IMG/VR virus record: IMGVR_UViG_3300042691_019533
Span: 1 to 64,000 of that record
Length of the DNA: 64,000 nt
Origin: a virus
Reading direction: 5' to 3' (one strand)
Below the pieces are notes generated by a model. The model made no database searches. It saw only the letters and a program-made list of their open reading frames with translations, and had not been told where the DNA came from. This document shows, in pieces, positions 3,716 through 35,923 of the stretch; within the stretch, counting starts at the first letter, position 1, and each line of letters opens with the position of its first letter. Both the position numbers and the translations under genes were made by a program.

Positions 3716-3717
3716 AA

Positions 3718-3968: not shown

Positions 3969-3988
3969 AATTTTATTTAGTTTATTTT

Positions 3989-4933: not shown

Positions 4934-4985
4934 AAATGTATGCAAAAATACTTACCTTTAATTTATTCCATTTTTATTTTTTTTA

Positions 4986-5653: not shown

Positions 5654-5665
5654 ATTTTAAAGAAA

Positions 5666-19382: not shown

Positions 19383-19416
19383 TGTATATTATAAAAAATA
19401 TGTTATATTACCACTA

Positions 19417-20460
19417 ATGAAGTTAGACAGAAAAATAGGAATATTTTCGGATATTCACCTTGGATTATATCAAGATAATGAACTTTGGCATGATACTGCT
19501 TTAAATTTTGCAAAATGGGCTAGTCGAGTTTATTCTGAAAGAGATATCAATCAAATATTAATACCGGGTGATATATTTCATAATAGAAATGAAATAAATG
19601 TTAATACATTATCGGTTGCCAAAAAATTTTTTGATTATTTTAAAAATTTTGAGATATTTATTTCAACTGGAAATCATTGTTGTTTTTTTAAAAACAACAG
19701 CACAGTTAACTCGATATCTATTTTAGATGGGTGGAATAATATCAAAATATTTGATAATGAACCCATAATATTAACATATAAAAATAAAAAAATATCAATG
19801 ATTCCGTGGGGTACTTCAGTCGATAAAATACCAGAAACTGATATTTGTATTGGTCATTTCGAAATATCTTCATTTTATATGAATTCATATAAGGCATGCG
19901 AGCATGGAATCAACTCTGGAGACATTTTAAAGAAGTCTCCATACGTCATATCCGGTCATTTTCATAGAAAAGACCACAGAACATACTCAAACGGTCAAAT
20001 CTTGTATGTAGGTAGTCCATATCAACAAAATTTTGGAGACACTTTGGACGAAAGAGGAATATATACTTTTGATTTGGATGAAAACACTTTTGATTTCATT
20101 AAAAATGACATTTCACCACAATATTTTAAGTTTTCTGCAAAAAAAATCAAAAATAATGAACTTAATGACGATATTTTAACAGATTTAAGTAAAAATAACA
20201 TAATAAGTTTAATTATAGATGAAAAATTAACTCCAGAAGAGATTTTATCAATAAAAGACAAGATAAACAAGCTCGAACCTCAAATATTAAGAGTGGATTA
20301 TGAAGATAATGATACAGAATTAGAGTCTTCGTCAGTTGAAAATGACTATAACTTATCTAATATATTAAAATCTATTGAAGATTTTATCGAAACGTTAGAT
20401 ATAGAGCACAAAAAAGAAGTTGAAGAATATATAAAACAATTATATAATAAATTAACATGA
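19417..20460 (+). CDS. gp47: Recombination endonuclease subunit (gp47, Mre11/SbcD-like)
   Basis: SDIHLG, GDIFH, GNH, GHFE, SGHFH and YVGSPYQ metallophosphoesterase motifs. Confidence 0.92.
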   Translation: MKLDRKIGIFSDIHLGLYQDNELWHDTALNFAKWASRVYSERDINQILIPGDIFHNRNEINVNTLSVAKKFFDYFKNFEIFISTGNHCCFFKNNSTVNSISILDGWNNIKIFDNEPIILTYKNKKISMIPWGTSVDKIPETDICIGHFEISSFYMNSYKACEHGINSGDILKKSPYVISGHFHRKDHRTYSNGQILYVGSPYQQNFGDTLDERGIYTFDLDENTFDFIKNDISPQYFKFSAKKIKNNELNDDILTDLSKNNIISLIIDEKLTPEEILSIKDKINKLEPQILRVDYEDNDTELESSSVENDYNLSNILKSIEDFIETLDIEHKKEVEEYIKQLYNKLT

Positions 20461-21209
20461 ATAACGAAATAGGAATAGGAATTTTAGATTTATACGATCA
20501 AGATAGTCTGTCTAAATGTTTAGATAGTATAAATTTTCCACATAATGATATAATAATATCATCTTTAACTAAAAATAAATCATATTTGGATAATCATAGA
20601 AGTTATACATCACAAACTTCATTAGCAACATTAAGAAATCATATTATTTCTCAATTTAGACTTAAAAAAATAAAATATTTTTTTATTTTACATTCAAATC
20701 AAATAGTGATTAATAAAAATATTTGGAATGATACTATAAAAATCGCAGAAACGTTCGGAACGTGGTTTTTAAGTAAGTTTGATACTAAATCTTTATCTAT
20801 AGAAGACGATTCCGGATTGGAATTGAATATAAGTTCAAAATTAAATAGTGAATTTTTATTTTTTAACTCTGGAATCATAAAAAATAATGGATATTTTGAT
20901 GATAGATTCTTTAACGGTAAAGAACTAGACGTTATAGACTATATAATAAATTTAAGAAATAAAAAATTAACATTACCAACTGGATTTTACCCATCAATTC
21001 AAGATAAATGGTTAGAATCAACTAATTCTAAGATAGAAGCTATAGATTTTAATGATTTTCCTAATAACGATAAAATAGTTCAGATATCTTACGGTTATTT
21101 CATGCATATTCATAAGTATATTCCAAACCAAAACGAACCTAAAGCAGTATCAAATGACGAGTTACTAAAAACTGCTGAACATTTACAGAAAAATTATGCA
21201 AGAAAATAA
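20457..21209 (+). CDS. Degenerate GT2-like protein
   Basis: IGIGI start, RN..I, GYFDDRF and D-Y motifs of GT2, but FILHSN where the paralogues have LEDD. Confidence 0.5.
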   Translation: MNNEIGIGILDLYDQDSLSKCLDSINFPHNDIIISSLTKNKSYLDNHRSYTSQTSLATLRNHIISQFRLKKIKYFFILHSNQIVINKNIWNDTIKIAETFGTWFLSKFDTKSLSIEDDSGLELNISSKLNSEFLFFNSGIIKNNGYFDDRFFNGKELDVIDYIINLRNKKLTLPTGFYPSIQDKWLESTNSKIEAIDFNDFPNNDKIVQISYGYFMHIHKYIPNQNEPKAVSNDELLKTAEHLQKNYARK

Positions 21210-21987
21210 GATAGGCGTAGGCGTTATAACATATAATAGACCAGATTTCTTTGAAAAATGTTTTAATTCTATTCCAAAAGATAAAATAAAAGAACTTGTC
21301 GTAGTTAATGATGGGAAAAAAATCGATTTTAATTTTCAAAATTCACATTTAATACAACATGAAACAAATAAAAATGTAGGAGAGAGCAAAAATGACGCAA
21401 TGCGTTATCTTTTAGATAAAAATTGTGATTATATTTTTACTTTAGAGGATGATATTATCATAAAAGATCCTTTAATATTTCAAAATTATATTAATGCATA
21501 TAAAGAAACAGGAATTCAACATTTTAATTTTGGATTTTCTCAAAGAGAAAACTTAGACGAAAATTTAAAACCAATTTGGAGAAAAATAATCAATTATAAA
21601 AATACTAAATTAGTATTAAATAATAATATTTTAGGAGCGTTTACGTTCTATACTAGAAAAGCATTACAAACGATAGGGTTGCATCATAAAGATTTTAATA
21701 AAGGTCATGGAGATCATTTAGAATTAACATACCGAGCTTATAAACATGGATTTACAACCCCGTTTTGGTGGTTTGCTGATCTATACGAAAGTTGGAATAT
21801 GATTGAAAATCAAAGTGATTTTGTTACAGACTCTAAAGTTAGAGATCCAAAAACATTTAATAATAATTTTAATGACGCGAGAGCGATATTTAAAAGATTA
21901 CATGGTATAGATATATTTGAAATACCAAATTTATCAGAAGCTGAAATTATTAAAAATTTAAAAGAACTTAAAAATGGAATACATTAA
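21196..21987 (+). CDS. Glycosyltransferase family 2
   Basis: GVITYNRP, VVVNDG, SKNDA and TLEDD. Confidence 0.85.
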   Translation: MQENKIGVGVITYNRPDFFEKCFNSIPKDKIKELVVVNDGKKIDFNFQNSHLIQHETNKNVGESKNDAMRYLLDKNCDYIFTLEDDIIIKDPLIFQNYINAYKETGIQHFNFGFSQRENLDENLKPIWRKIINYKNTKLVLNNNILGAFTFYTRKALQTIGLHHKDFNKGHGDHLELTYRAYKHGFTTPFWWFADLYESWNMIENQSDFVTDSKVRDPKTFNNNFNDARAIFKRLHGIDIFEIPNLSEAEIIKNLKELKNGIH

Positions 21988-22783
21988 AGATAAAATAGGA
22001 GTTGGTATAACTACATATAATAGTGAAAACTATTTTAAAGAATTATATAACAGTATAGATAATTCAGTCGTAAACGAATTGGTAGTTGTTAATGGAGGTC
22101 AAGATTATCAAGATATTTATGATTGTGATTGGATTCAACATAGAAAAAACCATTATCCAGCACAATCTAGAAATGATTGCGTTTCTTATTTGATGAATAG
22201 AAAATGTGAACATATCTTTTTAATTGAGGATGATATGATAATTAAAAACTCTGATATATTTAATCAATATATTTTAGCATCTAAAGTGTCAGGGATAAAA
22301 TATTTTTCATATGTCAGTATGGGGGGAGAATGTGGTTCCCCCGAAAATAGAACACCTAGAACTATGGTAGATTATGGTAATAATATAAAAGTTAATTTAT
22401 ATTTGAATATGTGCAATGAGTTTACGTATCATCATTATACTACATTTAAAGAAGTTGGTTTATACGATCCAGTAAATGAGATGAGAAATGCTTTTGATGT
22501 TGATATGGCATATAGAGAAACTAAAATAAACAAATGGACTACTCCATTTTGGTGGTTTGCTGATATATATAACTCTGATCAATATATAAAAAACAACCCA
22601 AATGCTACTAGTAGATTACAGGCAGAAAGACCTGATGGATCAAGACAAGAATTAGTAATTCAAACTTTAAATTATTTCAAACAAAAACATAATTTGTCTG
22701 TAAACCAAATTCCAGATGTGGATAGAGACACGGTAATGAGCACCTTAAAAAGATTAAAAAATGAAAATAGCAATAGGAATTAA
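21974..22783 (+). CDS. Glycosyltransferase family 2 (paralogue of the preceding gene)
   Basis: GITTYN, ELVVVNGG, SRND, LIEDD and VGLYD. Shares TTPFWWFAD with 21196..21987. Confidence 0.85.
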   Translation: MEYIKDKIGVGITTYNSENYFKELYNSIDNSVVNELVVVNGGQDYQDIYDCDWIQHRKNHYPAQSRNDCVSYLMNRKCEHIFLIEDDMIIKNSDIFNQYILASKVSGIKYFSYVSMGGECGSPENRTPRTMVDYGNNIKVNLYLNMCNEFTYHHYTTFKEVGLYDPVNEMRNAFDVDMAYRETKINKWTTPFWWFADIYNSDQYIKNNPNATSRLQAERPDGSRQELVIQTLNYFKQKHNLSVNQIPDVDRDTVMSTLKRLKNENSNRN

Positions 22784-23531
22784 TATATTTAAATCTTATA
22801 AAAGACAAGATTTATGTATTAAGGTTTTAAAAAAACTTAAATCTAAATATAAAGAGATAGATTTATATAATATTACATTTCCAAACGAAAAAAACTTAGA
22901 TTGTGATTTTATACATTTACCGATATTAAAAACCAAAGCAAAAGATGTAGTATCAAATTCGAAATCTGAAAAGCCAATATCTAAAGAATTTTTTGATATA
23001 TTATCAAATCAAAACTGTGATTATTTTATATTTTTAAATAGTGATATACTATTATCTCCAAAATTTATAGATTTAATATTAAATCAAGAATATGAAACCT
23101 ATTGTGTATCTAGGCATGATACTTTACCGATAGAATCAATCGATAAAATAATTCCATTTAGAATTGAAATAGCAGGATTTGATGTTTGGGCGGTTAAAAA
23201 TAAATGGTGGAAAGAAAATAATACTTTATTCAAATCCTACATATACGCAGAGCATCTTTGGGATGTTGATTTTTCTTTAAATATGTTTAATCATAGTTTA
23301 TGTTTATTATGTAATAAAAATTTTTATGCCGCACACGAAAAACACGAATTAAATTGGAACGAAACCTCATTAGAAGCTAAATATAATTCTTTCTTATGGC
23401 AAGAAACACCATATCACAAAAAATGGCATGAATTTATATTCTCTAATTTAGTTAAGAGAAAACCATATGGTCAATTTTTAGAACCATTACCAAACGAAAA
23501 AGAATTGGAACAAAAATATTTAAAAATATGA
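22761..23531 (+). CDS. Putative GT-A glycosyltransferase
   Basis: FIFLNSDI, SR, GFD and WD motifs, plus island context. Confidence 0.55.
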   Translation: MKIAIGINIFKSYKRQDLCIKVLKKLKSKYKEIDLYNITFPNEKNLDCDFIHLPILKTKAKDVVSNSKSEKPISKEFFDILSNQNCDYFIFLNSDILLSPKFIDLILNQEYETYCVSRHDTLPIESIDKIIPFRIEIAGFDVWAVKNKWWKENNTLFKSYIYAEHLWDVDFSLNMFNHSLCLLCNKNFYAAHEKHELNWNETSLEAKYNSFLWQETPYHKKWHEFIFSNLVKRKPYGQFLEPLPNEKELEQKYLKI

Positions 23532-24214
23532 AATTATATACTGTCTTTACAGAATCTCATTATGAAATGTTTAAAGAATATTTCATAAAATCTTTTCCAT
23601 TCGAAACTGATTTAGAACTAGTAGTAAAATTCAAACCTCAAGTGTGTAAATCTTCAGAATTTCACAGTGAAGGGTGGAGAGATACTATGATGTATAAAGT
23701 TCAATGTTTCATAGATGCAGCATATGAAACAAAAGACGGAGATTGTTTTATTTTTTCAGATCCAGATATTCAATTTTTTAAACCATTTTATAAAGATTTA
23801 TTAAATCAAATAAATGGATTCGATGCTGCTTTTCAAAATGATTATATAGGAGGAGTAAATACTGGTTTTTTTATAATGAGATCTACGTCTAAAACTCGTG
23901 CTTTTTTACAAACAGTAAAAGGAAATTTGCATTTATTTCCAGAAGAACAAGTATGTTTTAATAATTTAATATCAAATTTTCACAGATACCAAAAAATAGC
24001 ATTTAATGCTAAATTATTAACTCCAAATTATTGGACTTATGGTGAAATAGCATTACAAAGACCTAGAGATGGACAACCAATGTCACATTGGAATGGTGTG
24101 GAAGATTTCGATATACCAAAAGATATAGTTATGCATCATGCTAATTGGGTTAAATGTTTTAAAGATAAAATTAAAATAATGGAAGTGGTTAAACAAAAAG
24201 TTAAACATTTATGA
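23528..24214 (+). CDS. Nucleotide-diphospho-sugar transferase (GT77-like)
   Basis: FSDPDIQFF, FQND, VNTGFFIMR, EQ..FN and HHANW...K. Confidence 0.75.
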   Translation: MKLYTVFTESHYEMFKEYFIKSFPFETDLELVVKFKPQVCKSSEFHSEGWRDTMMYKVQCFIDAAYETKDGDCFIFSDPDIQFFKPFYKDLLNQINGFDAAFQNDYIGGVNTGFFIMRSTSKTRAFLQTVKGNLHLFPEEQVCFNNLISNFHRYQKIAFNAKLLTPNYWTYGEIALQRPRDGQPMSHWNGVEDFDIPKDIVMHHANWVKCFKDKIKIMEVVKQKVKHL

Positions 24215-24912
24215 ATGTAAGTTTAGGGTTTTTAAATTATAATAGTTTTTTATATATAGAAAAACAGTTACAAAAAGATTATTTCAATCTATCAAATGGA
24301 GTTATAAACGAAATAATCATACAAGATGATTGTAGCGAAGATGATTTTGAAAAATTAAAAAAAATAGAAACTCAAAATATTAAAGTTTTTAAAAATGAAA
24401 AAAGAATTAAACCATTATTAGGAAGAATAAATTTAGTTAATAATTGCAATAACGATTGGGTTTTATTGATGGATTCTGATAATTTTTTAGATAAAAAATC
24501 TTTTGATTCATTATTTAATAATGATATTATTTTTAATTCTAATACGATTTATGCTCCAGATTTTGCTAGGCCAAAATTTAATTATAAAGCTATTTCTAAT
24601 TTTAATTTAGATTTAAATATAGTTAAAAATAATTTTAATTATTTAATTTGTTTTTTAAATATTGGAAATTATTTAATACCAAAAAAAGAGTATTTAAATA
24701 TAGCTAAAAAAATAGACAAAAAGTTTTCTGAATATACAATGGAAGTATTGTATTACAATTATTTATGGTTAAGTAGTGGAAATTTAATTAAATGTGTTAA
24801 AGATTATGAATACGATCATACCATGAGAGATGATTGCTTTTCATACGCAAACGATAAAAATTTTAATGAAATTTTACCATTAATAACAAAATTATATTTA
24901 AATAATATATGA
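24211..24912 (+). CDS. Glycosyltransferase family 2
   Basis: EIIIQDDCSED, R...V and WVLLMDSDN. Confidence 0.8.
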   Translation: MNVSLGFLNYNSFLYIEKQLQKDYFNLSNGVINEIIIQDDCSEDDFEKLKKIETQNIKVFKNEKRIKPLLGRINLVNNCNNDWVLLMDSDNFLDKKSFDSLFNNDIIFNSNTIYAPDFARPKFNYKAISNFNLDLNIVKNNFNYLICFLNIGNYLIPKKEYLNIAKKIDKKFSEYTMEVLYYNYLWLSSGNLIKCVKDYEYDHTMRDDCFSYANDKNFNEILPLITKLYLNNI

Positions 24913-25640
24913 ATTCTCCAAAATTAAAAGATTTAACAGAAGAACAAATTAAAAATTTTACTTTAGACTCTAAAATACCAATAAGAGAATGGTATTTTAA
25001 TGAGTCTGAAGTTCGAGTTTCACATTTATACGAACAAAATGTTATAATGCATCTTAAACAGATGGCCAAATATAGACAAACTAATTATTACGGACAAACT
25101 GATAATTGGTTATATCAAGCATTGACAGACTTCTCTATACGCGGTAAAGATGTCCTAATAATAGGATCATTAATGCCTTGGTACGAATCTATAGCTTTAG
25201 AATTTGGATGTAACACATGTACAGTGGTAGAATATAGAATACAAGATAAAATAGTTCCGAATGTAAAATATATACAACCACATGAATTATTAGATTTAAA
25301 ATTTGATGTTGTTTTTTCAATATCTTCATATGAACATGATGGTTTAGGTAGGTATGGAGATCCTATAAATCCAAATGCTGATATCGAAGCAATGAGAAAC
25401 ATTAAAAATAATTTAAAACCTAATGGAATTTTATATTTAGCCGTCCCAGTTGGAGTAGATGAGATAGTGTGGAATGCCCATAGGGTATATGGTAAAATTA
25501 GATTACCAATGTTAATACATTCTTGGGATTTAATTGGAAAATATGGAATAACTAAAGACATTTGGAACACCCCATACACTAATGACTGTCCGGCTCAACC
25601 AATTTTAGTATTAAAAAATAATGAAACTAAAACAATTTAA
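24909..25640 (+). CDS. DUF268-family SAM-dependent methyltransferase-like protein
   Basis: LIIGS..PWYE, FSISSYEHDGLGRYGDPINP..D, LKPNG.L.LAVPVG.D and NAHRVYG..RL. Confidence 0.8.
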   Translation: MNSPKLKDLTEEQIKNFTLDSKIPIREWYFNESEVRVSHLYEQNVIMHLKQMAKYRQTNYYGQTDNWLYQALTDFSIRGKDVLIIGSLMPWYESIALEFGCNTCTVVEYRIQDKIVPNVKYIQPHELLDLKFDVVFSISSYEHDGLGRYGDPINPNADIEAMRNIKNNLKPNGILYLAVPVGVDEIVWNAHRVYGKIRLPMLIHSWDLIGKYGITKDIWNTPYTNDCPAQPILVLKNNETKTI

Positions 25641-26511
25641 TGAATTTATATTAGAAATTGAACAATCTCCATATCCACCATATCATAAAGGATATTATTT
25701 AGAGAGATATTTTATAGACTTTTATATAAAAAATAGAAAAATTATAGACGATACGGGATATCAATTTTTACCTATAACTTGGACTGATATTTATATACAT
25801 AAACCACATTTAAGAGGTAAATTACAAGAAATAATAAATTCTTTAGATAAAGAAAAAAAATATTTTACAGTATCACAACATGACGATGCACCTTTAGAAA
25901 TTTTACCACCACATACAGTTAAATTTTCCGCAGGAGGAAACGCATCAAACTGTGTACCCATACCTTTAATATGTAGTCCAATTGAAAATATTGAAAAGAA
26001 AGAAAAAGATATATTTTGCAGTTTTGTAGGAAGTGTAAACGCTCCAGTTAATGTTTTTGGAGAAATGGGACATAATACCAGAATGAAGATGTTAAACAAT
26101 CTTAAAGATAAGCCTGAATATATATTAAAACCAAGAGTATGGCAAACTAGTATAGAAGAAAGTCGAAAAAATTTATTTCTTGATCTTACATCAAGAAGTA
26201 AATTTACTCTATGTCCCAGAGGATATGGAGCAACAAGTTTTAGATTATACGAGGCTATGCAATTAAATTCTATTCCGGTTTATATTTATTATGACAAACC
26301 ATATCTACCATATAAAGACAAAATAGATTGGAATAGTTTTTGTGTATTAATTAATTTTAATGATATTGATAAATTGGATGAAAAATTAAAATCAATAACT
26401 GAGGAAACTTATGATAAGATGTTAAATAAAATAAGTGAAATATATCAAAAATACTTTACTTTTGAAGGTATGTGCAATAGAATAATCGAAACATTACAAG
26501 AATCAATATGA
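25621..26511 (+). CDS. Exostosin-family (GT47-like) glycosyltransferase
   Basis: FCSFVG, SKFTLCPRGYGATSFRLYEAMQLNSIPV and LPY...IDW. Confidence 0.85.
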   Translation: MKLKQFNEFILEIEQSPYPPYHKGYYLERYFIDFYIKNRKIIDDTGYQFLPITWTDIYIHKPHLRGKLQEIINSLDKEKKYFTVSQHDDAPLEILPPHTVKFSAGGNASNCVPIPLICSPIENIEKKEKDIFCSFVGSVNAPVNVFGEMGHNTRMKMLNNLKDKPEYILKPRVWQTSIEESRKNLFLDLTSRSKFTLCPRGYGATSFRLYEAMQLNSIPVYIYYDKPYLPYKDKIDWNSFCVLINFNDIDKLDEKLKSITEETYDKMLNKISEIYQKYFTFEGMCNRIIETLQESI

Positions 26512-27122
26512 AAAAAATATTTTTAGATTGCGGAACTAATCTATGCCAAGGACTACAAGAAATATCAAAAAAACACAACATTACAGATGAATGGGAGGTT
26601 TATTCTTTCGAAGCTAATCCGTTAACATATAGTATAATAAATAAAAATAAATTTTCAAATGTTAAATTTATCAATAAAGCAGTATGGAATGAAAATTGCA
26701 CAAAAAATCTTACGGTAGAAATATGGCCTGGTGAAGTTAAAAAAAGCGATATTTATAATATCAAAGATGATATAGTAACTGATTTACCAATTGGTGGAGG
26801 ATGCAATATCATGGATGAAAATTTTATATTTATTCACTCAAAAGAAGAAAATATTACTAAAAAAGCTCATATAGTAGAATGTTTTGATTTCAGTAATTTT
26901 ATTTTAAATAATTTTAAAAAAGAAGATTTTATAATAATAAAATTGGATATTGAAGGTGCGGAATATCCCGTTTTAGAGAAAATGATAAAAGATGACACAT
27001 TAAAATATGTCGATATATTATATGTCGAATGGCATAACCATATGTTGATAAATAAATATGATGAAATTTCAATAATTAACGCTATAAAAAAAGAAAATAT
27101 AAATTTAAATATCTGGTTTTAA
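26508..27122 (+). CDS. FkbM-family methyltransferase
   Basis: FLDCG.N, SFEANP, NKAVW, KLDIEGAEY and VEWH. Confidence 0.85.
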   Translation: MKKIFLDCGTNLCQGLQEISKKHNITDEWEVYSFEANPLTYSIINKNKFSNVKFINKAVWNENCTKNLTVEIWPGEVKKSDIYNIKDDIVTDLPIGGGCNIMDENFIFIHSKEENITKKAHIVECFDFSNFILNNFKKEDFIIIKLDIEGAEYPVLEKMIKDDTLKYVDILYVEWHNHMLINKYDEISIINAIKKENINLNIWF

Positions 27123-27134
27123 TATAAAAAATAT

Positions 27135-27908
27135 ATGAAAAAAATATTATTCGTTATAGCAAAATATAAAGACGAAAAAGAAAAAATATTTAAAGAGATT
27201 ATCTCTCCGAAAAATAAAAATTATTGTGATAAACATGGATTTAAATATGTGGTTATAGATTCTAAAACAGAAATTCCAATATTTAGAAATAACACAACTT
27301 GGAATAAATTAACAGTAATACGAGATCTTATAGATTCTGGAAAATTACAGAACGGGGACGTAATAATCAATCAAGATGCGGATATGATTTGGTATAATGA
27401 TAATTTTTCGTATGAGCCTGCTGATAATAAAAGTTTTTCAATATCGATTGATAGCGGAAATACTTTTTGTTTCGGATCTATAGGATTTAAAATAAATGAT
27501 TGGTCTAAACGACTAATTACAGATATTTTAGATGAAAATTTGTGGAATAGTACGTTACCATTATTATATAATGATGAAAGTTTTCCAGAAAAACCTCCAT
27601 TTTCATTTGCAAATTTATTTAGAGAACAAGCGATGTTTTATTATTTATTTGGTATAAAAAAACATTCTTGGAAGCCATTTAAAGATATTGAGAATTTTGG
27701 TATACATTCAGATGTAACAGAATTTACAAAATATTCATTAGAAGAAGCGCATGAAAATCTAGATATTAAACCAACAAATTTTAATGTTACTTGTTGGGAA
27801 AACGAATCAGACTTGACGTATTACATAAATTTATTAAATAATAAATCAGATGTATATCTCAGACATTTTACTGGATGTGATTGGAATGTAGTTAAAAATT
27901 GGATTTAA
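27135..27908 (+). CDS. GT34 (GMA12/MNN10)-like glycosyltransferase
   Basis: KNYCDKHGFKY, WNKL, DAD, REQ and C-terminal RHFTG. Confidence 0.65.
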   Translation: MKKILFVIAKYKDEKEKIFKEIISPKNKNYCDKHGFKYVVIDSKTEIPIFRNNTTWNKLTVIRDLIDSGKLQNGDVIINQDADMIWYNDNFSYEPADNKSFSISIDSGNTFCFGSIGFKINDWSKRLITDILDENLWNSTLPLLYNDESFPEKPPFSFANLFREQAMFYYLFGIKKHSWKPFKDIENFGIHSDVTEFTKYSLEEAHENLDIKPTNFNVTCWENESDLTYYINLLNNKSDVYLRHFTGCDWNVVKNWI

Positions 27909-27912
27909 TCTT

Positions 27913-28983
27913 ATGAAAATATGTGTAATAGGTAATGATTATAAACAGCAATTTCCACTATGTAGTTATGGTGGAATAGAATCATGCGTTGAAAATTTAT
28001 GTATAGGTATGAGAGATTACCTACCGAAAGATAATAAATTTAGTGTTATAGTACCAAAAATTTTGACTGGAGAAAAAGACTATGGATTTAAAATAATTCA
28101 AACTAATTATATAGAGTCTTCCATCTCCGGCGTTTCTTTTTATGAATTCGGACGAGAGATTAATCAAGCAATTAGAAATTCAAAATCAAAACCAGATATT
28201 ATTTGGTCGCAAAGTGCTTGGTCTGCTAAATCTTTTTGTGATTTAAATATACCAGTTATAGTAACTATTCATGATAGTTGCGGATGGGAAGAAAATAAAT
28301 TTATTTTTAACGAAAATGTATATTATAGATTTGTTTCTAAATTTTTATACGATCATGTTTTACAAGATGCAAATAATAACGAATTCGTTGCTAAGATAAA
28401 ATCTAAAAGCTTTTGGGGTCATTCCGGATTAATAGATGATGAATATGATTTTGAACCTAATAAGGAAGATTATGTATTATGGGTAGCGGGATTTAATTGG
28501 GGAATGCATAGTAAAGGATTAGATATATTAATAGATTTAGCTAAAAAAATACCAGAACAAAAATTTGTGGTTTATGGTATGGGGGATGACAATATTGAAA
28601 ATTATTTAAAAGATTTAAATAACAAAATATTAAATTTTGAATTTAAAGGAAAATTAAATAGAGGAGAAGATCATAAAAAAGCATTTAAAAAAGCTAGATT
28701 ATTTGCGATGTTAAGTAGAGTACCAGAAGCTTTCGGTAGAACTGGATTAGAGGCTATATCTAAAGGAACTCCGGTGATTGGAACAAGTATAGGATCTATA
28801 CCAGAACAAGTAAACCACGAAAATGTTGGTTACTGCTCTAACAATATAGACGAATTAGCACAAGCTATTAAATTTAAAAAATTTGATAATTTAAAATGTT
28901 TTGAATATTCAAAATCCAACTATCATATTAAAAATGAAATTAATTTTTTACTGGAAAAAAGCAATTTAATTTTAAATAAATGA
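27913..28983 (+). CDS. Glycosyltransferase family 4 (GT-B)
   Basis: P...YGGIE, VTIH, KG.D, EAFGRTGLEAISKGTPVIG and G..PE. Confidence 0.9.
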   Translation: MKICVIGNDYKQQFPLCSYGGIESCVENLCIGMRDYLPKDNKFSVIVPKILTGEKDYGFKIIQTNYIESSISGVSFYEFGREINQAIRNSKSKPDIIWSQSAWSAKSFCDLNIPVIVTIHDSCGWEENKFIFNENVYYRFVSKFLYDHVLQDANNNEFVAKIKSKSFWGHSGLIDDEYDFEPNKEDYVLWVAGFNWGMHSKGLDILIDLAKKIPEQKFVVYGMGDDNIENYLKDLNNKILNFEFKGKLNRGEDHKKAFKKARLFAMLSRVPEAFGRTGLEAISKGTPVIGTSIGSIPEQVNHENVGYCSNNIDELAQAIKFKKFDNLKCFEYSKSNYHIKNEINFLLEKSNLILNK

Positions 28984-29978
28984 AAGCTAATATAATTGGA
29001 TGTGGATTATCAGGAATTACATCAGCTATTTTATTAAAAGATAAAGGATATGATGTAACTATTTTCGAAACTAGATCTCATATTGGTGGAAATTGTTATG
29101 ATAGTAATTTATGCGGAACATTAGTTCATAATTACGGTCCTCATATATTTCATACTAGCGATGATGAAGTATATGAATTTTTAAGTAGATATACTGAATG
29201 GATAGAATTTAAAAACAAACCTAAAGGAAATACTAAAGTTGGTCTAATATCATTACCATATAGTAAAAAAACTATAAAAGAAATAGGAAAAGAATTATCT
29301 CAAGAAGAAATAGTAGATTTAATTTTTAAAGATTACTCAGAAAAACAATGGGGAGTATCTTTTGAAGATATTCCAAAATCTATTACAAATAGAATACCAA
29401 AAACTAAAGATTGCGAAGATCCCACATGGTACGAAGGAGAAAAATATCAATGTTTACCTAAGAATGGGTATACAAAAATGATGGAAAATATGTTGAGTGG
29501 ATTAAACGTGAAGCTAAATTGTAATGATACGGATTGGAAAAACTACAATTCAGATATAACGATTTACACTGGTAAAATAGATGAATATTTCAATTGCTGT
29601 TATGGTAAATTACCATATAGATCTCTTAATTTTATACACGAAATAACTCCAAATAAGTTAGATTATCCAATAATTAATCAAAATAACAAAGAAACAAATT
29701 ATACAAGAATTTACGACCATAGTTATTTTTCGGAAAAACATAAAGGATTAACAGTAATAACAAAAGAATACCCAAAAAATTCAGAACCACAAGATGTTCC
29801 TTTCTATCCTATTCCGTTCGGAGAAGGATTAAAATTGTATTCTAAATATAAGGAATTAGCAGATAAAGAAAAACATATTGTTTTTGTTGGTAGACTTGCT
29901 ACTTATACATATTTAGACATGTGGATGGCCGTTAAACAGGCTATGATTAAAATAAAAAATATTGAAAAAACAAAATAA
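28980..29978 (+). CDS. glf: UDP-galactopyranose mutase
   Basis: GCGLSG, HIGGNCYD, HNYGPHIFHT, YSEKQWG, YTGKID.YF, LPYRSL, PFYP and GRLATY.YLDM. Confidence 0.93.
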   Translation: MKANIIGCGLSGITSAILLKDKGYDVTIFETRSHIGGNCYDSNLCGTLVHNYGPHIFHTSDDEVYEFLSRYTEWIEFKNKPKGNTKVGLISLPYSKKTIKEIGKELSQEEIVDLIFKDYSEKQWGVSFEDIPKSITNRIPKTKDCEDPTWYEGEKYQCLPKNGYTKMMENMLSGLNVKLNCNDTDWKNYNSDITIYTGKIDEYFNCCYGKLPYRSLNFIHEITPNKLDYPIINQNNKETNYTRIYDHSYFSEKHKGLTVITKEYPKNSEPQDVPFYPIPFGEGLKLYSKYKELADKEKHIVFVGRLATYTYLDMWMAVKQAMIKIKNIEKTK

Positions 29979-29990
29979 TAATAATATAAT
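29962..29990 (+). promoter_or_regulatory. Sigma70-like internal promoter of the glycan island
   Basis: TTGAAA-17 nt-TATAAT, 5 nt before the ATG at 29996. Confidence 0.55.
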
Positions 29991-29995
29991 TGTTT

Positions 29996-30751
29996 ATGAA
30001 AAAAAATAAATTAGGTATATTTATGACTTTTTTCGATGAAACAAAGGCTATAAAATATGCAATTTCATCGCTGAGACGCTTTTACCCCGAATCTCCACTT
30101 TATATAGTATATGAAAGTGATGAAGATTTTAGTTTCTTAAAAAAAGATACTAATAATGTTTATTATAAAGTTGATGATACGATGGGTTCCGTATTAGGTA
30201 TCAACGATCAAAATTTTCGAACTGAAAAAAATCAAAAAAATATTAAAATTGCAACATTAGCTGTTATAGAAAGAGTATCAAAAGCTATAGAATATTTTGA
30301 TTCTGAATATATATTACAACACTGTCCAGACTCGTTAATTAGAGGAAAATTGACAATCCCAGAAAACACTGGCCTTTTAGGTTCGAGAGTAAATCAATAT
30401 TTCTCAGATGACGTTAATAAAGTATTAATAAAGTATGGCGGAATTCCAATAACTGCTTTTGGTGCTGTACCAGCTATTTATAATAGTGATGATTTTTTAA
30501 AAGCAAAAAATATCTTTTTAAAAAATGAAACTCTATTAGATGAATTATGTAATGCGTGGTACCCAATTTTTTCTCATGATATTTTATTACCTATATTATT
30601 TTCATTAATAGGAAAAATGGAAACGTTTAATCCTGAAATTACAGAATGTGGTAGAAATCCAAATTGGACTAATTCTGGACATCCACTATTACATCAATTC
30701 CGGTTTAACTATCCACATAGAACTTCAAAATATAAAGTAAATGAAAATTAA
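29996..30751 (+). CDS. Putative GT-A-like protein
   Basis: SLRRFYPESPLYIV, EYILQHCPDS.IRG, HD and HP.LHQF resemble divergent GT2 enzymes. Island context supports this. Confidence 0.5.
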   Translation: MKKNKLGIFMTFFDETKAIKYAISSLRRFYPESPLYIVYESDEDFSFLKKDTNNVYYKVDDTMGSVLGINDQNFRTEKNQKNIKIATLAVIERVSKAIEYFDSEYILQHCPDSLIRGKLTIPENTGLLGSRVNQYFSDDVNKVLIKYGGIPITAFGAVPAIYNSDDFLKAKNIFLKNETLLDELCNAWYPIFSHDILLPILFSLIGKMETFNPEITECGRNPNWTNSGHPLLHQFRFNYPHRTSKYKVNEN

Positions 30752-30760
30752 ATTAAAATT

Positions 30761-31354
30761 ATGATAAACGAATATATAGAAAAAACAATAACAGGAACAA
30801 GAGACTCGGATAGGCATTTATTAGTACTATTCAGCATAGCGTTAGCGACTAAAGGTAAAAATTATATAGAACTAGGAGTAAGATCAGGAGATAGTACAAC
30901 TCCATTAAAATTAGCGGCTAAATTAAATTCAGGTAAATTATATTCTGTTGATATTGATGAAAACCCTTTTAAAACTAAAAAAGACGAAAATTGGGAATTT
31001 TTTCAAAGCGATGCTGTTGAATTTTTATCGAACTGGGAGGATTCAAAAAAACCTACTCCCGATTTTATATATGTTGACGATTGGCATAGTTATGATCACG
31101 TAAAAAAAGAATTAGATATTATCGATAGAATAGTAACACCGTCAACAATTATATTATTACATGATAGCATGTATGGAAATACATGTCCATATTATCACTC
31201 CGACTTAACCTTAAAGGATGGACAATGGGCTAATGGAGGCCCATATAGAGCTATTGCAGAATTGAATCCTCAATTTTGGGAGTTTTCTACGTTACCTTGG
31301 AGTCATGGTTTGACGATTTTAAGAAAAAAATATTCAAACAGGACAACTACATAA
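30761..31354 (+). CDS. Class I SAM methyltransferase (Methyltransf_24-like)
   Basis: IELGVRSGDST, LYSVDI, DFIYVDDWHSY and ILLHD. Confidence 0.85.
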   Translation: MINEYIEKTITGTRDSDRHLLVLFSIALATKGKNYIELGVRSGDSTTPLKLAAKLNSGKLYSVDIDENPFKTKKDENWEFFQSDAVEFLSNWEDSKKPTPDFIYVDDWHSYDHVKKELDIIDRIVTPSTIILLHDSMYGNTCPYYHSDLTLKDGQWANGGPYRAIAELNPQFWEFSTLPWSHGLTILRKKYSNRTTT

Positions 31355-32169
31355 TGAAAATATTAGTTTTAGGTTCAAGTGGACAGATAGGAAAACCAAC
31401 TATTAAATATCTAAAAGATAATAATCACGATATTATCGAATGGGATATTCTAAAAGATCCATCAAACGATTTAAGAATACCAAACAAGGAATTATACAAA
31501 ACAATCAACACGTCTGATTTTGTTTATTATTTAGCATCTGATGTTGGAGGTGCAAAATATTTAGAAAAAAAACAAGATTCTTTCGAATTTATTAATAATA
31601 ACATGTTAATAATGTCCAACACATTTAAAGCTCTTAAAGAATGTAATAAACCTTTCATATTTACATCATCGCAAATGGCTGATTTAAAACATTCGACTTA
31701 TGGACAATTAAAATTATTAGGAGAAAAAATTACAAATGATATTGGAGGATTAGTTGTTAGACTTTGGAATGTATATGCTGAAGAAACGGATATTGAAAAA
31801 TCACATGTTATAACCGATTTTATTAAAATGGCGAAAACTTATAATAAAATTAACATGAGAACGGATGGTATGGAATCTAGACAATTTTTATATGCTGAAG
31901 ATTGTGCCAAGTGTTTATTAACACTAACAAAAAAATACAATCAATTAGATAAAACTAAACCATATCATATTACTAGTTTTAAATGGACTACAATAAAAGA
32001 CATAGCATTAATAATATCTAAATTAACAGGATGTGAGATTATATTTAATAAAAATAAAGATAAAACGCAAATGAACGCTATGAATCCGCCTAATAAATAT
32101 ATATTAAATTTTTGGGAACCTACGATTTCTTTAGAAGAGGGTATAAAAATATTAATTGATTCAAAATAA
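31354..32169 (+). CDS. NAD-dependent NDP-sugar epimerase/dehydratase
   Basis: Likely ATG at 31354 (TAATG overlap). MKILVLGSSGQIG, LASDVGG, TSS, YGQLK (YxxxK), RLWNVY, RQFLYAED and ISLEEGI. Confidence 0.88.
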   Translation: MKILVLGSSGQIGKPTIKYLKDNNHDIIEWDILKDPSNDLRIPNKELYKTINTSDFVYYLASDVGGAKYLEKKQDSFEFINNNMLIMSNTFKALKECNKPFIFTSSQMADLKHSTYGQLKLLGEKITNDIGGLVVRLWNVYAEETDIEKSHVITDFIKMAKTYNKINMRTDGMESRQFLYAEDCAKCLLTLTKKYNQLDKTKPYHITSFKWTTIKDIALIISKLTGCEIIFNKNKDKTQMNAMNPPNKYILNFWEPTISLEEGIKILIDSK

Positions 32170-32185
32170 AATAAATTAAAAATTT

Positions 32186-32761
32186 ATGCAAAAAAAAATA
32201 TACATAGAAGCTGGAGCTAATGACGGGGTTAATGGTTCAAGAGGAATACAGTTTAAAGATAATTCTGAATATATGGGAATTCTAATAGAACCTCATCCTG
32301 TGATATTTAATTATTGTTTGAATTCTAGAAAAAACGATAATACATTATTATATAATGTAGCATTAGTATCAAGAAATCATAAAGAACCTACAATTGAATT
32401 ACAATTACATTCTTTACATCATCCTATGAATTCTATTAAAAAATCCATAGGACAGGCTTATAATAATTCGATTACAGTTCAAGCTAGAACTCTACAATCT
32501 ATCGTAGATGAAAATAATATATCTGAGGTGGATTATTTATATTTAGATGTTGAAGGTTATGAAAATGAAGTTTTAATGGGGATAGATTTTAATAAGACTA
32601 AGTTTAAATATATAGAAGTAGAATGCCATGCAGAATTTATAGGTATGTCTACAGAAGATGAAATTAAAATGCATAGCGATCATTTAGAAAAATATAATTA
32701 TAAAGTAATTGAAAAAAATACAAATGAAGGATCTTTAAAGTTAGTTTTTATTCAAAATTGA
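32186..32761 (+). CDS. FkbM-family methyltransferase
   Basis: IEAGANDG, GILIEP, NVALV, VQARTL and LDVEGYE. Confidence 0.88.
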   Translation: MQKKIYIEAGANDGVNGSRGIQFKDNSEYMGILIEPHPVIFNYCLNSRKNDNTLLYNVALVSRNHKEPTIELQLHSLHHPMNSIKKSIGQAYNNSITVQARTLQSIVDENNISEVDYLYLDVEGYENEVLMGIDFNKTKFKYIEVECHAEFIGMSTEDEIKMHSDHLEKYNYKVIEKNTNEGSLKLVFIQN

Positions 32762-32786
32762 AAAATTTAAATTTATATGTTATAAT
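32758..32786 (+). promoter_or_regulatory. Sigma70-like promoter of gp46
   Basis: TTGAAA-17 nt-TATAAT with an extended TG, 7 nt before the GTG start. Confidence 0.65.
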
Positions 32787-32793: not shown

Positions 32794-34587
32794 GTGAAAA
32801 AAATAATATTTAATTCCGTTAAAATTCAAAATTTTCTTTCTGTCGGTAAAGATCAAATAAAATTAAATTTTAATTCTGGAATAAATCTTATAACAGGAGA
32901 AAATAAAGATAATGGTGGGAAAAATGGCGTTGGTAAAAGCACTATAGCCGATTCTATATATTGGTGTTTATTTGGAAACACAATTAGAGAACTTAAAAAA
33001 GATAAAATAATACATTCTAAAAGTAGTGGAAATTGTGAGGTAAGTTTAGATGTTAATATAGAAACAGAAAATGATAATAAAAATTATATTATCACTAGAA
33101 CGATAGATCCATCAAAAATAAGTTTATTATGTGATAATGTAGACATAACACCATCTACTATACCAGCTACCGATGATTTAATTAAACATTTAATTGGAGG
33201 AACAGAAGAAGTATTTCAAAATTCAGTTATAATGTCTTCTAATAATACCTTGCCTTTCATGGCGCAAAAAAAGATAGACAAAAGAAAATTTGTAGAAGGA
33301 ATTTTAAAACTTAATATTTTTAGCGAGATGCTTCTAAAAATAAGATCTGATTATAACGATTATAAAAAAGAAAATGACTTATTAAGTAATGATTTTATAA
33401 ATCAGCAAAAAAATTTAGAAATATTCGAAAAACAAAAAGAAAACGGAGAAGAAATTAAAAGTTTAAAAATAAAGACCATAAATGAAAAAATAGAAACAAA
33501 TAAAAAAACTATTTCAGATTTAAAAAATATAAATTTAAATTTTAATAAAATTAAAATTGACGTTAAAAATATAGAAAATAAATTAAAAATTTTAGATTCT
33601 GGATATAAAAAATTACAATCTGAAAATTTAAAAATAGTAAATGCTAAGGCTGAAATATCAGCCGAAATAAATCAATTTAAAAAAGAAAAACAAAAATTTT
33701 TAGATAAAGGGAATACATGTCCAGTTTGTAACAGAGATTATTGTAAAGAAGATTTAGAAGTTTTAAATGAAAAACTGAAAGAAATAGACATTAACATACG
33801 AAATCATTCCAAATCTTTAGAGGATATCTTGAATAAGAAAGAAGATAATGATAAAAAAATAAATGATGTAAATTCGGGGATTACAAAATTAAAAAATAAA
33901 CATAAAGAACTTTTAGCGGAATCTACAAAAATAGAAATTACAAACGAAAAAATTAAAAATCTAATAGATAAAAATAAAGAATATGATGATGATATTCTAA
34001 AGATTAAAAATGAAAAATACGATTATGATAAAAATATAATAGAGTGTAATAAAAAAATCAAAAATCTAAACGAAAAACTTATAAATATTAAAAAATATTT
34101 ACAAATACTTGATTCTTGTAAGTTTATAGTGTCAGAAGATGGAGTAAAAACCTATATAATAAAGAAAATACTGAAAATTATAAATGAAAGATTAAATTTT
34201 TATTTAAAAACTTTTGATGCTCCATGTAAATGTGAGTTTAATGAATTGTTTGAAGAAACTATATATAATGAACAAGGTAAAGAATGTTCGTATCACAATT
34301 TTAGTGGTGGAGAAAGAAAAAGAATAGATGTTGCTATTTTGTTTATGTTTCAAGATGTTTTACGATTACATTCAGGGATATCATATTCTTTAAATATTTA
34401 TGACGAATTATTTGATTCTGCATTAGATGATAATGGTATTGATAAAATTTTAAATATTTTAAGATTAAAAGTTGAAAAATATAAAGAATCGGTTTATATT
34501 ATATCTCATAAGACATCAACTAAATCAAATATTGATAATGTTATTTTTTTGGAAAAAACAAACGGCGAAACCAAAATGATTAATTGA
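32794..34587 (+). CDS. gp46: Recombination ATPase subunit (gp46, Rad50/SbcC-like)
   Basis: NFLS.G, NGVGKST Walker A, coiled coil with a CPVC hook, FSGGE signature, YDE.FD and ISH. Confidence 0.93.
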   Translation: MKKIIFNSVKIQNFLSVGKDQIKLNFNSGINLITGENKDNGGKNGVGKSTIADSIYWCLFGNTIRELKKDKIIHSKSSGNCEVSLDVNIETENDNKNYIITRTIDPSKISLLCDNVDITPSTIPATDDLIKHLIGGTEEVFQNSVIMSSNNTLPFMAQKKIDKRKFVEGILKLNIFSEMLLKIRSDYNDYKKENDLLSNDFINQQKNLEIFEKQKENGEEIKSLKIKTINEKIETNKKTISDLKNINLNFNKIKIDVKNIENKLKILDSGYKKLQSENLKIVNAKAEISAEINQFKKEKQKFLDKGNTCPVCNRDYCKEDLEVLNEKLKEIDINIRNHSKSLEDILNKKEDNDKKINDVNSGITKLKNKHKELLAESTKIEITNEKIKNLIDKNKEYDDDILKIKNEKYDYDKNIIECNKKIKNLNEKLINIKKYLQILDSCKFIVSEDGVKTYIIKKILKIINERLNFYLKTFDAPCKCEFNELFEETIYNEQGKECSYHNFSGGERKRIDVAILFMFQDVLRLHSGISYSLNIYDELFDSALDDNGIDKILNILRLKVEKYKESVYIISHKTSTKSNIDNVIFLEKTNGETKMIN

Positions 34588-34624
34588 TTTTTATATTATA
34601 AAAAATAAGTTTAAATAAAAAATT

Positions 34625-35923
34625 ATGGCTTTAAAAATAAAAGAAGATATTAGTAATAGTATTGTATATAAAACAATACCGGTAAATATTGGTATTCCAC
34701 ATCAACCAAACGGTTTACCTATAGGAAGTCCAGTATATAGTTACATGAATCTACAGCCTATCAGCATACCGAAAGCTCCAGCGTTAGATATGCCAGAAGC
34801 ATCATTACCTAGAGCACTTAACTATTATGCTGATTATGGTGGATGTGGATTTTGGAGAATGATATGGCCAGAATTTTTATTAAATGGTTATCAAAAAGCG
34901 TGTATATCTGGACTTACATGTATGGTATTAGATCCTAGATTTTATAGAGATATAAAAGCAATTAGAGTTCAAAGACAAGCCACTCCAGCACAAAGAGATT
35001 TTATTAAAGAATTAAGAAAACTTAGTCACGAATTAAAATTTAGAATGATTTATGAAGTTGATGATATTGTTTTTAAGGATGATATTCCAGACTACAATAG
35101 ATGTAAGGAACCATTTTGTGATAAAGCTATAACCGAAAGCATAGTCGATATAATGAAAAATATGGATGAAATTACTGTTACTTGTAATTTCATGAAAGAA
35201 TATTATAAAGACAAAATAGGAACAGATAGAGTAACTGTAATTCCAAACTACGCTCCAAAATTTTGGTTGGATCGTTTTTATGATATAGATAAAATTAAAA
35301 ATAATTTTGAAAAAAATAAGAAAAGACCAAGAATTTTATATGCAGGATCGGGAACTCACATAGATGTAATGAATAAAACAAACGGAAAAGATGATTTCGG
35401 ACATGTTTTAGAATCTATAATAAAAGCTAGAAAGAAATTTAAGTTTGTATTCAAAGGTTGCTATCCTATAGCACTAAAACCATTTATAGATTCAGGAGAA
35501 ATGGAATTTATACAATGGTCACAGCTTTTTGATTTACCAAGAGGTCTTTATGAAGCAAACTGTAATGCAGTTTATGCTCCATTAGCTGATAATACTTTTA
35601 ATAAATCAAAGAGTAATATTAAAATGATAGAATCTGGAGCATTGGGAATTCCTGGAGTTTTCCAAGATCTCTGCACTTATGAAACAGCAGATTTAAAGTT
35701 TAAATCTGGAGATGATCTTATAAATCAGTTAGAGTATTTAACTTCTGATTTTGATAAATATATTAAATTATCTGAAAAATCTAGAAAATACGTCGAAGGA
35801 ATGTGGTTAGAAGATCATATCGACGAGTACGAAGCAATTTATTTTACAGAGTGGGGATCTAAAGAGAGAAAAGAAAAAGCTCCAAATCTTATAAATTTAA
35901 ATCCTGAGCAAAATAAATCTTGA
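34625..35923 (+). CDS. GT-B fold glycosyltransferase adjacent to the DNA polymerase
   Basis: D.GGCGFWR..WP, QR, IYEVDD, VIPNY, ILYAGSGTH and APLADNTFNKSKSNIKMIE. Confidence 0.8.
   Translation: MALKIKEDISNSIVYKTIPVNIGIPHQPNGLPIGSPVYSYMNLQPISIPKAPALDMPEASLPRALNYYADYGGCGFWRMIWPEFLLNGYQKACISGLTCMVLDPRFYRDIKAIRVQRQATPAQRDFIKELRKLSHELKFRMIYEVDDIVFKDDIPDYNRCKEPFCDKAITESIVDIMKNMDEITVTCNFMKEYYKDKIGTDRVTVIPNYAPKFWLDRFYDIDKIKNNFEKNKKRPRILYAGSGTHIDVMNKTNGKDDFGHVLESIIKARKKFKFVFKGCYPIALKPFIDSGEMEFIQWSQLFDLPRGLYEANCNAVYAPLADNTFNKSKSNIKMIESGALGIPGVFQDLCTYETADLKFKSGDDLINQLEYLTSDFDKYIKLSEKSRKYVEGMWLEDHIDEYEAIYFTEWGSKERKEKAPNLINLNPEQNKS

Follow-up and report, generated by a model that had tools for sequence, protein, structure and literature searches.

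A hypervariable glycan-enzyme island between genes 47 and 46 of uncultured freshwater T4-like phages, tentatively assigned to virion glycosylation

Hypervariable islands rich in glycosyltransferase (GT) genes are already known from aquatic T4-like phages, namely the host-recognition cluster of pelagimyophages and the 'LPS' (lipopolysaccharide) or cell-wall clusters of the cyanomyophages P-SSM2, S-SCSM1 and S-SCSM2R, none of which has an experimentally established function (PMC7029224, PMC12801897). An island of this general kind is described here from the IMG/VR fragment IMGVR_UViG_3300042691_019533, of which the first 64 kb out of 78 kb (hereafter the window) were analysed: 16 genes (o1 to o16, Table 1) lie between gp47 and gp46, which encode an SbcD/Mre11-like and an SbcC/Rad50-like protein. 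Like the known islands, it belongs to an aquatic T4-like myophage, combines many GTs with nucleoside diphosphate (NDP)-sugar epimerases or dehydratases, and is not syntenic between relatives. Unlike the pelagimyophage cluster, it is located between gp47 and gp46 and not in the VrlC-gp14 structural region, and contains no tail fibre genes; it further differs from the aquatic islands by a fixed core of three paralogous GT-A genes, by its richness in methyltransferases and by its distant clade. A preliminary description of the window, made from the sequence alone, had allowed that the locus might already be described; this is true of the type of island but not of its site, so that what is new here is the position in the replication module, the fixed paralogous GT-A core, the abundance of methyltransferases and the clade itself. 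A full-text literature search (T4-like, glycosyltransferase, gp46, gp47) returned nothing on this locus, and the 'moraphage' GT families (PMC12619734) were set aside, since they are core genes of jumbo phages from another lineage and do not represent this locus.

The leading, still tentative, explanation is that the island is one allele of a hypervariable, serotype-like cassette for cytoplasmic glycan synthesis in a fixed gp47-gp46 slot, with virion proteins as the most likely acceptor. The clade that carries the slot consists of uncultured, low-GC, freshwater T4-like phages. Three other described systems bear on this explanation. Mycobacteriophages, among them Che8 and Corndog, reportedly O-glycosylate their virions, at capsid and tail-tube subunits, by means of phage GTs, according to work by Freeman and colleagues in 2023. 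Those enzymes resemble the present ones in being phage-encoded, soluble transferases of the GT-A/GT2 type (here o1-o4 and o6) able to act on virion proteins in the cytoplasm; unlike the island, with its 16 genes in the replication module, the actinobacteriophage operons comprise 2-4 genes and accompany structural or late genes. The GTs of the chlorovirus PBCV-1 are mostly soluble and early-expressed, include the exostosin-annotated A075L, and glycosylate the capsid protein (PMC9614988); chlorovirus glycans have a central core conserved across isolates (PMC7826918). The chlorovirus and mimivirus machineries are thus similar to the island in their mostly soluble, cytoplasmic, virus-encoded transferases and exostosin-type member, with a conserved glycan core there, but they belong to giant eukaryotic viruses with genes scattered or clustered elsewhere and are related to the island genes only at the family level, whereas here a single swappable phage operon is found. 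In giant viruses, methyltransferases also take part in particle glycosylation, and the glycosylation gene clusters vary between mimivirus clades. Finally, in bacterial O-antigen and capsule loci and the gtrABC cassettes, as in the island, sets of transferases are replaced in a serotype-like manner while the flanks stay conserved, and galactofuranose (Galf), fucose and O-methyl chemistry is found; unlike them, the island has no initiating transferase, flippase, polymerase, ABC transporter or GtrA/B/C-type membrane protein.

The island extends over 20457-32761 and contains exactly 16 open reading frames (ORFs), all on the plus strand, with ~100% coding density and no free reverse-strand ORF; ten of the 17 junctions, gp47/o1 included, overlap by 1-23 nt, which agrees with the co-oriented, partly overlapping genes reported previously. 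For o15 and o13, the likelier starts are ATG 31354 and ATG 29996, respectively. No Rfam family, tRNA or meaningful repeat was found in the region. In four other lake runs, short contigs that match exactly cover the island and span both of its junctions; it is therefore no assembly chimera. Only the exact pieces across the one or the other junction were used for this purpose (the contigs are short and of low depth), and many 'joints' in read-derived contigs, with sides of 21-30 letters and 85% likeness, were discarded as unreliable.

The gene identities are established for most of the island. GTs were assigned by Pfam (o2, o5, o6, o8 and o11), by paralogy (o3) or by predicted fold (o1 and o4), and the non-GT remainder includes a UDP-galactopyranose mutase (UGM), a short-chain dehydrogenase/reductase (SDR) of the epimerase/reductase type, three methyltransferases (o9, o14 and o16) and a DUF268 protein (o7). 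The earlier count of about ten GT-like genes, a UGM, an epimerase and four methyltransferase-like genes is right, with o7, o10 and o13 as soft calls; among its family labels, GT2, GT4, GT47 and GT77-like are borne out by Pfam, while GT34 for o10 is not, the match being below the Pfam cut-off. The residues D81-A82-D83 of o10 are invariant in three orthologues. The four genes without a Pfam match (o1, o3, o4 and o13) were studied by fold, paralogy or atlas model. The predicted fold of o1 (AlphaFold2, AF2, compared by Foldseek) is a GT-A domain like those of B4GALNT1, POMGnT1, TarP and GnT-I, similar also to mimivirus R699 and megavirus GTs, and the o1 family profile aligns over its full length to the o2/o3 profile (hhalign 99%, E 2e-18). 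The fold predicted in the same way for o4 is a GT-A domain like those of TarP, TarS and RmlT. Profile comparisons of o4 and o13 with o2/o3 (hhalign) were not significant; the assignment of o4 was settled by its predicted fold, and o13, for which there is no Pfam, PHROG or PDB match, is a putative GT by an atlas lead only.

Sequence and profile searches of the PDB gave nothing usable for o1, o2, o4, o13, o7, o10 and a 432-amino-acid (aa) GT-like gene downstream of gp46, and no NCBIfam equivalog was found for any of the ten proteins tested, so that none of them closely replicates a named bacterial enzyme. When 50,697 phage records were searched with the island (Megablast) and with o1 (tblastn), there were no matches, and no relative of o1 was detected in 185,579 prokaryote species genomes; NCBI/ENA contigs of up to 216 kb do carry o1 relatives. 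The o2 protein matches 252 cultured-phage records, 220 of them mycobacteriophages, whose GTs are 24-27% identical to it.

The o12 protein aligns to solved UGMs, such as that of D. radiodurans (3HDQ), over both domains, and the alignment shows the motifs GPHIFHT, KQWG, LPYRSL and GRLATY. Its FAD (flavin adenine dinucleotide)-binding Rossmann N-terminus, its GLF domain and its full-length similarity to solved enzymes argue convincingly that o12 is a genuine UGM, with which the island would be able to make UDP-galactofuranose. The furanose-capable and O-methylating gene set proposed in the preliminary description is in line with this alignment and with the several families of sugar-type methyltransferases present.

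The most informative feature emerges from the comparison of relatives. Nineteen related IMG/VR loci were obtained via gp46 and gp47 and then extended. All nine complete gp47-gp46 intervals of relatives hold an island, 6.2-16.7 kb in length, ~100% coding and co-oriented; island sizes are 6.2, 7.3, 7.8, 9.4, 9.6, 10.0, 12.3 (the window), 15.6 and 16.7 kb. In each island, an o1 orthologue directly follows gp47 and precedes one or two genes of the o2/o3 type, which are sometimes apparently fused. At an identity of at least 35%, 141 island proteins from 13 loci form 83 clusters, of which only those of o1-o3 are universal; o4 is clustered in four of the nine complete islands and has a 34%-identical relative in locus L019. 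This comparison of the interval across genomes, suggested in the preliminary description, reveals a division into core and variable remainder that the description itself had missed. The pooled Pfam tally of the islands consists almost entirely of glycan enzymes: GT2 (14), FkbM (13), Methyltransf_24 (7), epimerase (6), GT1/4 (5), GT47 (5), GT25 (5) and GDP-mannose dehydratase (4), as well as GT7, GT10 and GT11 fucosyltransferases, Polysacc_synt_2 and C-methyltransferases. No polyketide, nonribosomal peptide synthetase (NRPS) or aglycone genes occur in this tally for any island. Since the enzyme content differs between islands, the alleles would specify different sugars, Galf here and fucose-type sugars elsewhere.

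Furthermore, gene sharing is independent of relatedness, which is a signature of cassette or module exchange. Indeed, the two closest relatives (gp46 79% and 71% identical) have 0-1 distal genes in common with the window, whereas two more distant genomes (G003 and G004, 56-57%) have four of its genes, o4-o5-o8-o10, and the o5-o8-o10 module is common to both. The core enzymes diverge faster than the flanks: relative to a 195-kb genome of the clade, o1, o2 and o3 are 44%, 36% and 31% identical, against 56% for gp47 and 52% for gp46. In an outgroup contig (L042; contig CAZIJP010000021.1 of a metagenome-assembled genome (MAG), 3100-7149), gp47 and gp46 overlap by 4 nt with no island, and a GT-like gene and polB follow; the island is therefore a clade-specific insertion into an ancestrally coupled pair, and this insertion and the core/variable architecture are established here. 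In T4, only two tiny ORFs lie between genes 47 and 46.

The solubility of the island products is likewise an observation. No 19-residue window in any of the 16 proteins reaches a Kyte-Doolittle value of 1.6, and the 141 proteins of the 13 related loci include no multi-pass membrane protein and only four marginal single segments. A 92%-complete relative (236 ORFs) encodes 26 small proteins with 1-4 hydrophobic segments, the largest membrane proteins having 3-4; ten of the 26 were run through Pfam (including all those of at least 80 aa with at least two segments other than three ORFs of 858 aa, located at the polymerase position, 784 aa and 141 aa), and no Wzx-, Wzy-, WaaL- or PGT-like protein (flippase, polymerase, ligase or initiating phosphoglycosyl transferase) was found among them. 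Neither the window island nor the 13 related islands contain an initiating phosphoglycosyl transferase, a flippase or polymerase, an ABC transporter or GtrA/B/C membrane proteins, so that the absence of flippase, polymerase, initiating transferase and membrane proteins noted earlier for the window extends to the related loci and to the 92%-complete relative. Judging from its predicted proteins, the phage cannot export a glycan on its own, and a product that needs no export, such as virion proteins, would be the most economical reading. Families, folds and the lack of any hydrophobic 19-mer support the soluble, cytoplasmic, glycan-building gene set of the preliminary description; its 'self-contained' pathway is not upheld, as no initiating enzyme or acceptor was identified and the UDP-Glc/Gal precursors must come from the host.

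As regards expression, a promoter-like TTGAAA-17-TATAAT is present at 32758-32786, ending 8 nt upstream of the gp46 start, and gp46, the 432-aa gene and the polymerase gene have short upstream gaps, each with sigma-70-like hexamers. A near-identical 20-nt AT-rich element, TATATTATAAAAAATA[T/A]GTT, occurs at 19385-19404 and 34592-34611; gp47 and the 432-aa gene, respectively, start ~13 nt downstream of it. The genes have very short leaders, and no Shine-Dalgarno-like sequences precede those of the island. The sequence TATAAATA is absent from the plus strand within the island, and neither it nor the sigma-70-like sites are enriched over shuffles in this 25% GC DNA. The overlap of o1 with the gp47 stop and a few well-placed sites weakly suggest early/middle expression together with the replication genes, a context that does not discriminate between virion proteins and the host envelope as targets.

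On this basis a mechanism can be proposed, in which we infer when and in what order the enzymes act, which glycan they make and, most of all, what acceptor they use. The island, whose first gene overlaps the gp47 stop, would probably be transcribed with early/middle replication genes, and its soluble enzymes would act in the cytoplasm of the infected cell, drawing on UDP- and GDP-sugars of the host. The UGM would make UDP-galactofuranose, and the SDR enzyme would convert another NDP-sugar. The GT-A paralogues o1-o3, joined in some genomes by o4, may build an inner glycan, conserved like the acceptor that bears it, to which the variable transferases (GT2, GT77-like, GT47, GT34-like and GT4) and three to four methyltransferases would add a strain-specific, partly O-methylated outer part. 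The acceptor would be one or more virion proteins, glycosylated before or during assembly and set free by lysis, by analogy with mycobacteriophage and chlorovirus/mimivirus particles. Stated for the whole clade, and with a little more reserve, the proposal is that these widespread phages coat their own virion proteins with a conserved inner core made by o1-o3, perhaps primed by the product of the 432-aa gene, and with a strain-specific, O-methylated outer part containing Galf or fucose, and that recombination swaps the locus between its gp47 and gp46 flanks. Virion proteins are favoured over editing of host glycans because this is mechanistically economical, because a conserved core implies a single conserved acceptor across phages that are ~50% diverged, and because o1 has no relative in the prokaryote genomes searched; the preference is modest.

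Several points weigh against this proposal. Nothing in the sequence links any of the enzymes to a protein substrate, and no acceptor was identified. The island lies in the replication module and not beside structural genes as in Che8 and Corndog, and the mycobacteriophage GTs that it matches are only ~25% identical and belong to cluster C genes whose part in virion glycosylation is presumptive. The functional assignments of o7, o10 and o13 are weak or lacking. Comparable islands of cyano- and pelagimyophages were published as modifying host O-antigen or LPS (PMC7029224, PMC12801897), and GT25, GT10 and GT11, present in the islands of relatives, are family names typical for enzymes of LPS or lipooligosaccharide (LOS). 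Moreover, soluble GTs could modify host undecaprenyl-linked intermediates at the inner membrane face, with the host machinery ensuring export.

These last points lead to the alternative that survives best, although it is rather unlikely: the soluble enzymes would modify lipid-linked O-antigen, capsule or core intermediates of the host, which the host flippase and ligase would export, and superinfection, or the loss of progeny on infected cells and debris, would thereby be blocked. Such remodelling is the published view for the pelagimyophage islands (PMC7029224) and for the clusters of P-SSM2, S-SCSM1 and S-SCSM2R (PMC12801897), but the function of these islands was never demonstrated experimentally. 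GDP-mannose dehydratase and Polysacc_synt_2 can be added to GT25 and the GT10/11 fucosyltransferases as LPS/LOS-typical families in the relatives' islands, Galf and terminal O-methyl groups are frequent in O-antigens, the likely early/middle expression would fit, and strain-level variation would match the diversity of host glycans. However, with no initiating transferase, flippase, polymerase, ligase, ABC transporter or Gtr-type protein in the 13 islands or in the 92%-complete relative, the export machinery of the host would have to accept a glycan with some ten additions specified by the phage. The conservation of o1-o3 despite ~50% divergence of the flanks implies one conserved acceptor, which is easier to reconcile with a phage protein than with host glycans that vary, and the lack of prokaryotic relatives of o1 indicates that the core is no recent copy of host LPS genes.

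A cytoplasmic product of another kind is much less probable still. It could be a free or lipid-anchored methylated oligo- or polysaccharide, a small molecule, or a glycosylated non-structural protein of phage or host, for example an inactivated defence or receptor protein. Every enzyme is soluble and the acceptor was not identified, FkbM and CmcI-type methyltransferases also act on secondary metabolites according to their family descriptions, and mycobacteria make cytoplasmic methylated polysaccharides with soluble GTs and methyltransferases; on the other hand, such a product has no phage precedent, the islands hold no genes of the polyketide, NRPS or aglycone type, and the outer enzymes turn over fast, in a serotype-like manner, which would point to external selection on the product and away from an internal metabolite.

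The searches for DNA modification covered five records, namely the 92%-complete relative (195 kb) and four fragments. A dCMP/dUMP hydroxymethylase of the ThyA family was found in none of the five (the same search detects T4 gp42), a C5 DNA methylase (PF00145) was absent from all five (the control was positive in nine genomes), and TGT/DpdA was not found; an ordinary ThyX is present. TET/JBP (PF12851), AGT (PF11440) and T4 beta-gt (PF09198) gave no match, but these are weak negatives, since the controls were silent, those for AGT and beta-gt including no phage positive control. Least probable of all is therefore the other acceptor named in the preliminary description, a modified base of the phage genome on which the enzymes would build an oligosaccharide to evade restriction and CRISPR, like the T4 alpha/beta-glucosyltransferases or methyltransferase + TET (5mYOX) + GT clusters: GT genes do occur in the 55-47-46-43 neighbourhood of T4-like genomes (the T4 alpha-gt adjoins gene 47, as had been stated, and the beta-gt is near gene 42/43), a conserved GT-like gene lies between gp46 and the polymerase gene, and phage GT clusters can place mono- to trisaccharides on 5-hydroxymethylcytosine (5hmC), but known DNA glycans need 5hmC or 5-hydroxymethyluracil and have three sugars at most (bioRxiv 10.1101/2023.12.21.572611), far below what ten transferases and four methyltransferases would make.

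Table 1. Genes of the island and of its flanks in the window.
Feature	Position	Strand	Evidence
gp47 (SbcD/Mre11-like nuclease), left flank	19417..20460	+	Pfam Metallophos 7e-08; 51-86% identity in 9 related loci; stop overlaps o1 start by 4 nt
o1, core GT-A glycosyltransferase, first island gene throughout the clade	20457..21209	+	AF2 (pLDDT 91) and Foldseek; hhalign; phrog_2456; in every related island
o2, core GT2-like glycosyltransferase	21196..21987	+	Pfam Glycos_transf_2 4.7e-06; phrog_2456 8e-25; orthologues in all related islands
o3, core GT2-like paralogue of o2	21974..22783	+	33% identical to o2 (E 1e-43); clusters with its counterparts in relatives, where it is in some cases apparently fused to o2
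o4, GT-A-fold glycosyltransferase, semi-conserved	22761..23531	+	AF2 (pLDDT 84) and Foldseek; 60-70% orthologues in L006/L004, G003 and G004
o5, Nucleotid_trans (GT77-like) transferase	23528..24214	+	PF03407 1.6e-08; 72-74% orthologues
o6, GT2 glycosyltransferase, variable part	24211..24912	+	PF00535 1.4e-06; singleton cluster
o7, DUF268 protein (methyltransferase-like in the preliminary description)	24909..25640	+	PF03269 1e-31; no PDB sequence match
o8, GT47/exostosin-like glycosyltransferase	25621..26511	+	PF03016 5.5e-18; RXYLT1_C 2.8e-09; 55-57% orthologues in G003 and G004
o9, FkbM-family methyltransferase	26508..27122	+	PF05050 1.2e-09; TIGR01444 1.2e-13
o10, tentative GT34-like transferase	27135..27908	+	PF05637 E 0.0011, below cut-off; D-A-D motif; no PDB profile match
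o11, GT4 (GT-B) glycosyltransferase	27913..28983	+	Glycos_transf_1 3.4e-18; Glyco_trans_1_4 1.1e-16
o12, UDP-galactopyranose mutase (UDP-Galf)	28980..29978	+	GLF 4.2e-54; NAD_binding_8 1.7e-18; 3HDQ 1.7e-64
o13, probable GT-A-fold protein, lead only	29996..30751	+	Atlas model: GT2 cluster (TM 0.70), Nucleotid_trans/GT8 cluster (TM 0.63); no Pfam, PHROG or PDB match
o14, class I methyltransferase (Methyltransf_24/CmcI-like)	30761..31354	+	PF13578 4e-13; PF04989 6.3e-06
o15, predicted extended-SDR NDP-sugar epimerase/reductase	31354..32169 (ATG 31354)	+	Pfam Epimerase 3.7e-22; NCBIfam matches all far below equivalog cut-offs
o16, FkbM-family methyltransferase	32186..32761	+	PF05050 1.8e-16; TIGR01444 5.7e-17
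gp46 (SbcC/Rad50-like), right flank	32794..34587	+	Pfam SMC_N 1e-11, AAA_23; 47-79% identical in relatives
Conserved GT-like gene (432 aa), between gp46 and DNA polymerase, outside the island	34625..35923	+	phrog_7162 'glycosyltransferase' 6e-21; 62-82% identity across the clade

The fragment is 36% complete (CheckV estimate), with a GC content of ~25% in the window. In order, its genes are those of the uvsW helicase and the gp55 sigma factor, gp47, the 16 ORFs, gp46, the 432-aa gene, a family-B DNA polymerase, UvsX, a gp41-type helicase and gp32. By its sequence the source is a T4-like phage distant from cultured ones, with gp46 and the polymerase ~28-30% identical to the best cultured phages. 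The capsid protein Gp23 is encoded by relatives, the capsid gene being located outside the present fragment. Metagenomes of lakes and freshwater that contain this DNA come from at least 14 studies, and no RNA data set was among those listed for the island. The 432-aa GT-like gene is better conserved than its neighbours and also lies between gp46 and polB in the island-less outgroup contig; it is therefore older than the island. It possibly belongs to the same glycosylation function, and it may also have an acceptor of its own, separate from that of the island. The gp55 ORF (18780-19382, plus strand, 200 aa) overlaps the end of uvsW, and only its C-terminal 92-130 residues are conserved in relatives; its true start may be further downstream.

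Three fibre-like ORFs of 226, 969 and 318 aa, with 23-30% Ser+Thr and without PHROG function, are encoded in the window at 124-4945 and 5666-7507 (minus strand), and the portal protein (phrog_213) has a terminal tail rich in Thr, Pro and Glu. The Thr/Pro-rich C-terminal tail of the portal and the Ser/Thr-rich fibre-like ORFs were considered as hints to the acceptor and rejected as non-specific.

Additional observations were made in the relatives. Three proteins from their islands (L025, L026, L027, L003 etc.) match transaldolase (TAL_FSA, 1.7e-35), a classic auxiliary metabolic gene of cyanophages and pelagiphages, and two others match a sugar C-methyltransferase domain (6e-44). The near-complete relative G001 (IMGVR_UViG_3300032315_001604) has more glycan-type genes outside its island, at 122009-122827, 187552-188199 and 29053-29625; these encode a Glyco_tranf_2_5 protein with N-terminal hydrophobic segments, an FkbM methyltransferase and a Methyltransf_24 protein. 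It also encodes, at 37732-37998 (the same as 18732-18998 of L031), a possible sugar transporter of 88 aa, which has a PQ-loop domain (3.9e-12) and three hydrophobic segments and resembles SemiSWEET proteins in size and repeat. L042 and L043 are T4-like phage sequences binned inside bacterial MAGs; in the stretch fetched from L043 (a 128-kb contig of a 'Chlamydiae' MAG, 43% GC in this stretch), there is only a GT-like gene.

In summary, no target has ever been assigned to the many 'LPS-like' GT genes of aquatic myophages, and this clade offers a clean test case: its slot is fixed, its conserved three-enzyme core is expected to recognise one conserved acceptor, natural variants of the cassette number in the dozens, and genes for export are lacking, as are the prerequisites for DNA modification. 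To our knowledge, glycosylation of the particle has been shown among phages only in actinobacteriophages, with little evidence outside this group; if true, the proposed coating of virions would be the first virion glycosylation beyond them, and a phage counterpart of O-antigen switching and of the glycan gene clusters of giant viruses. The clade is also a potentially large source of soluble, compact GTs and sugar methyltransferases of new specificity. The identity of the acceptor would reveal the purpose of these abundant genes, either shielding or adhesion of the particle or editing of the host surface.

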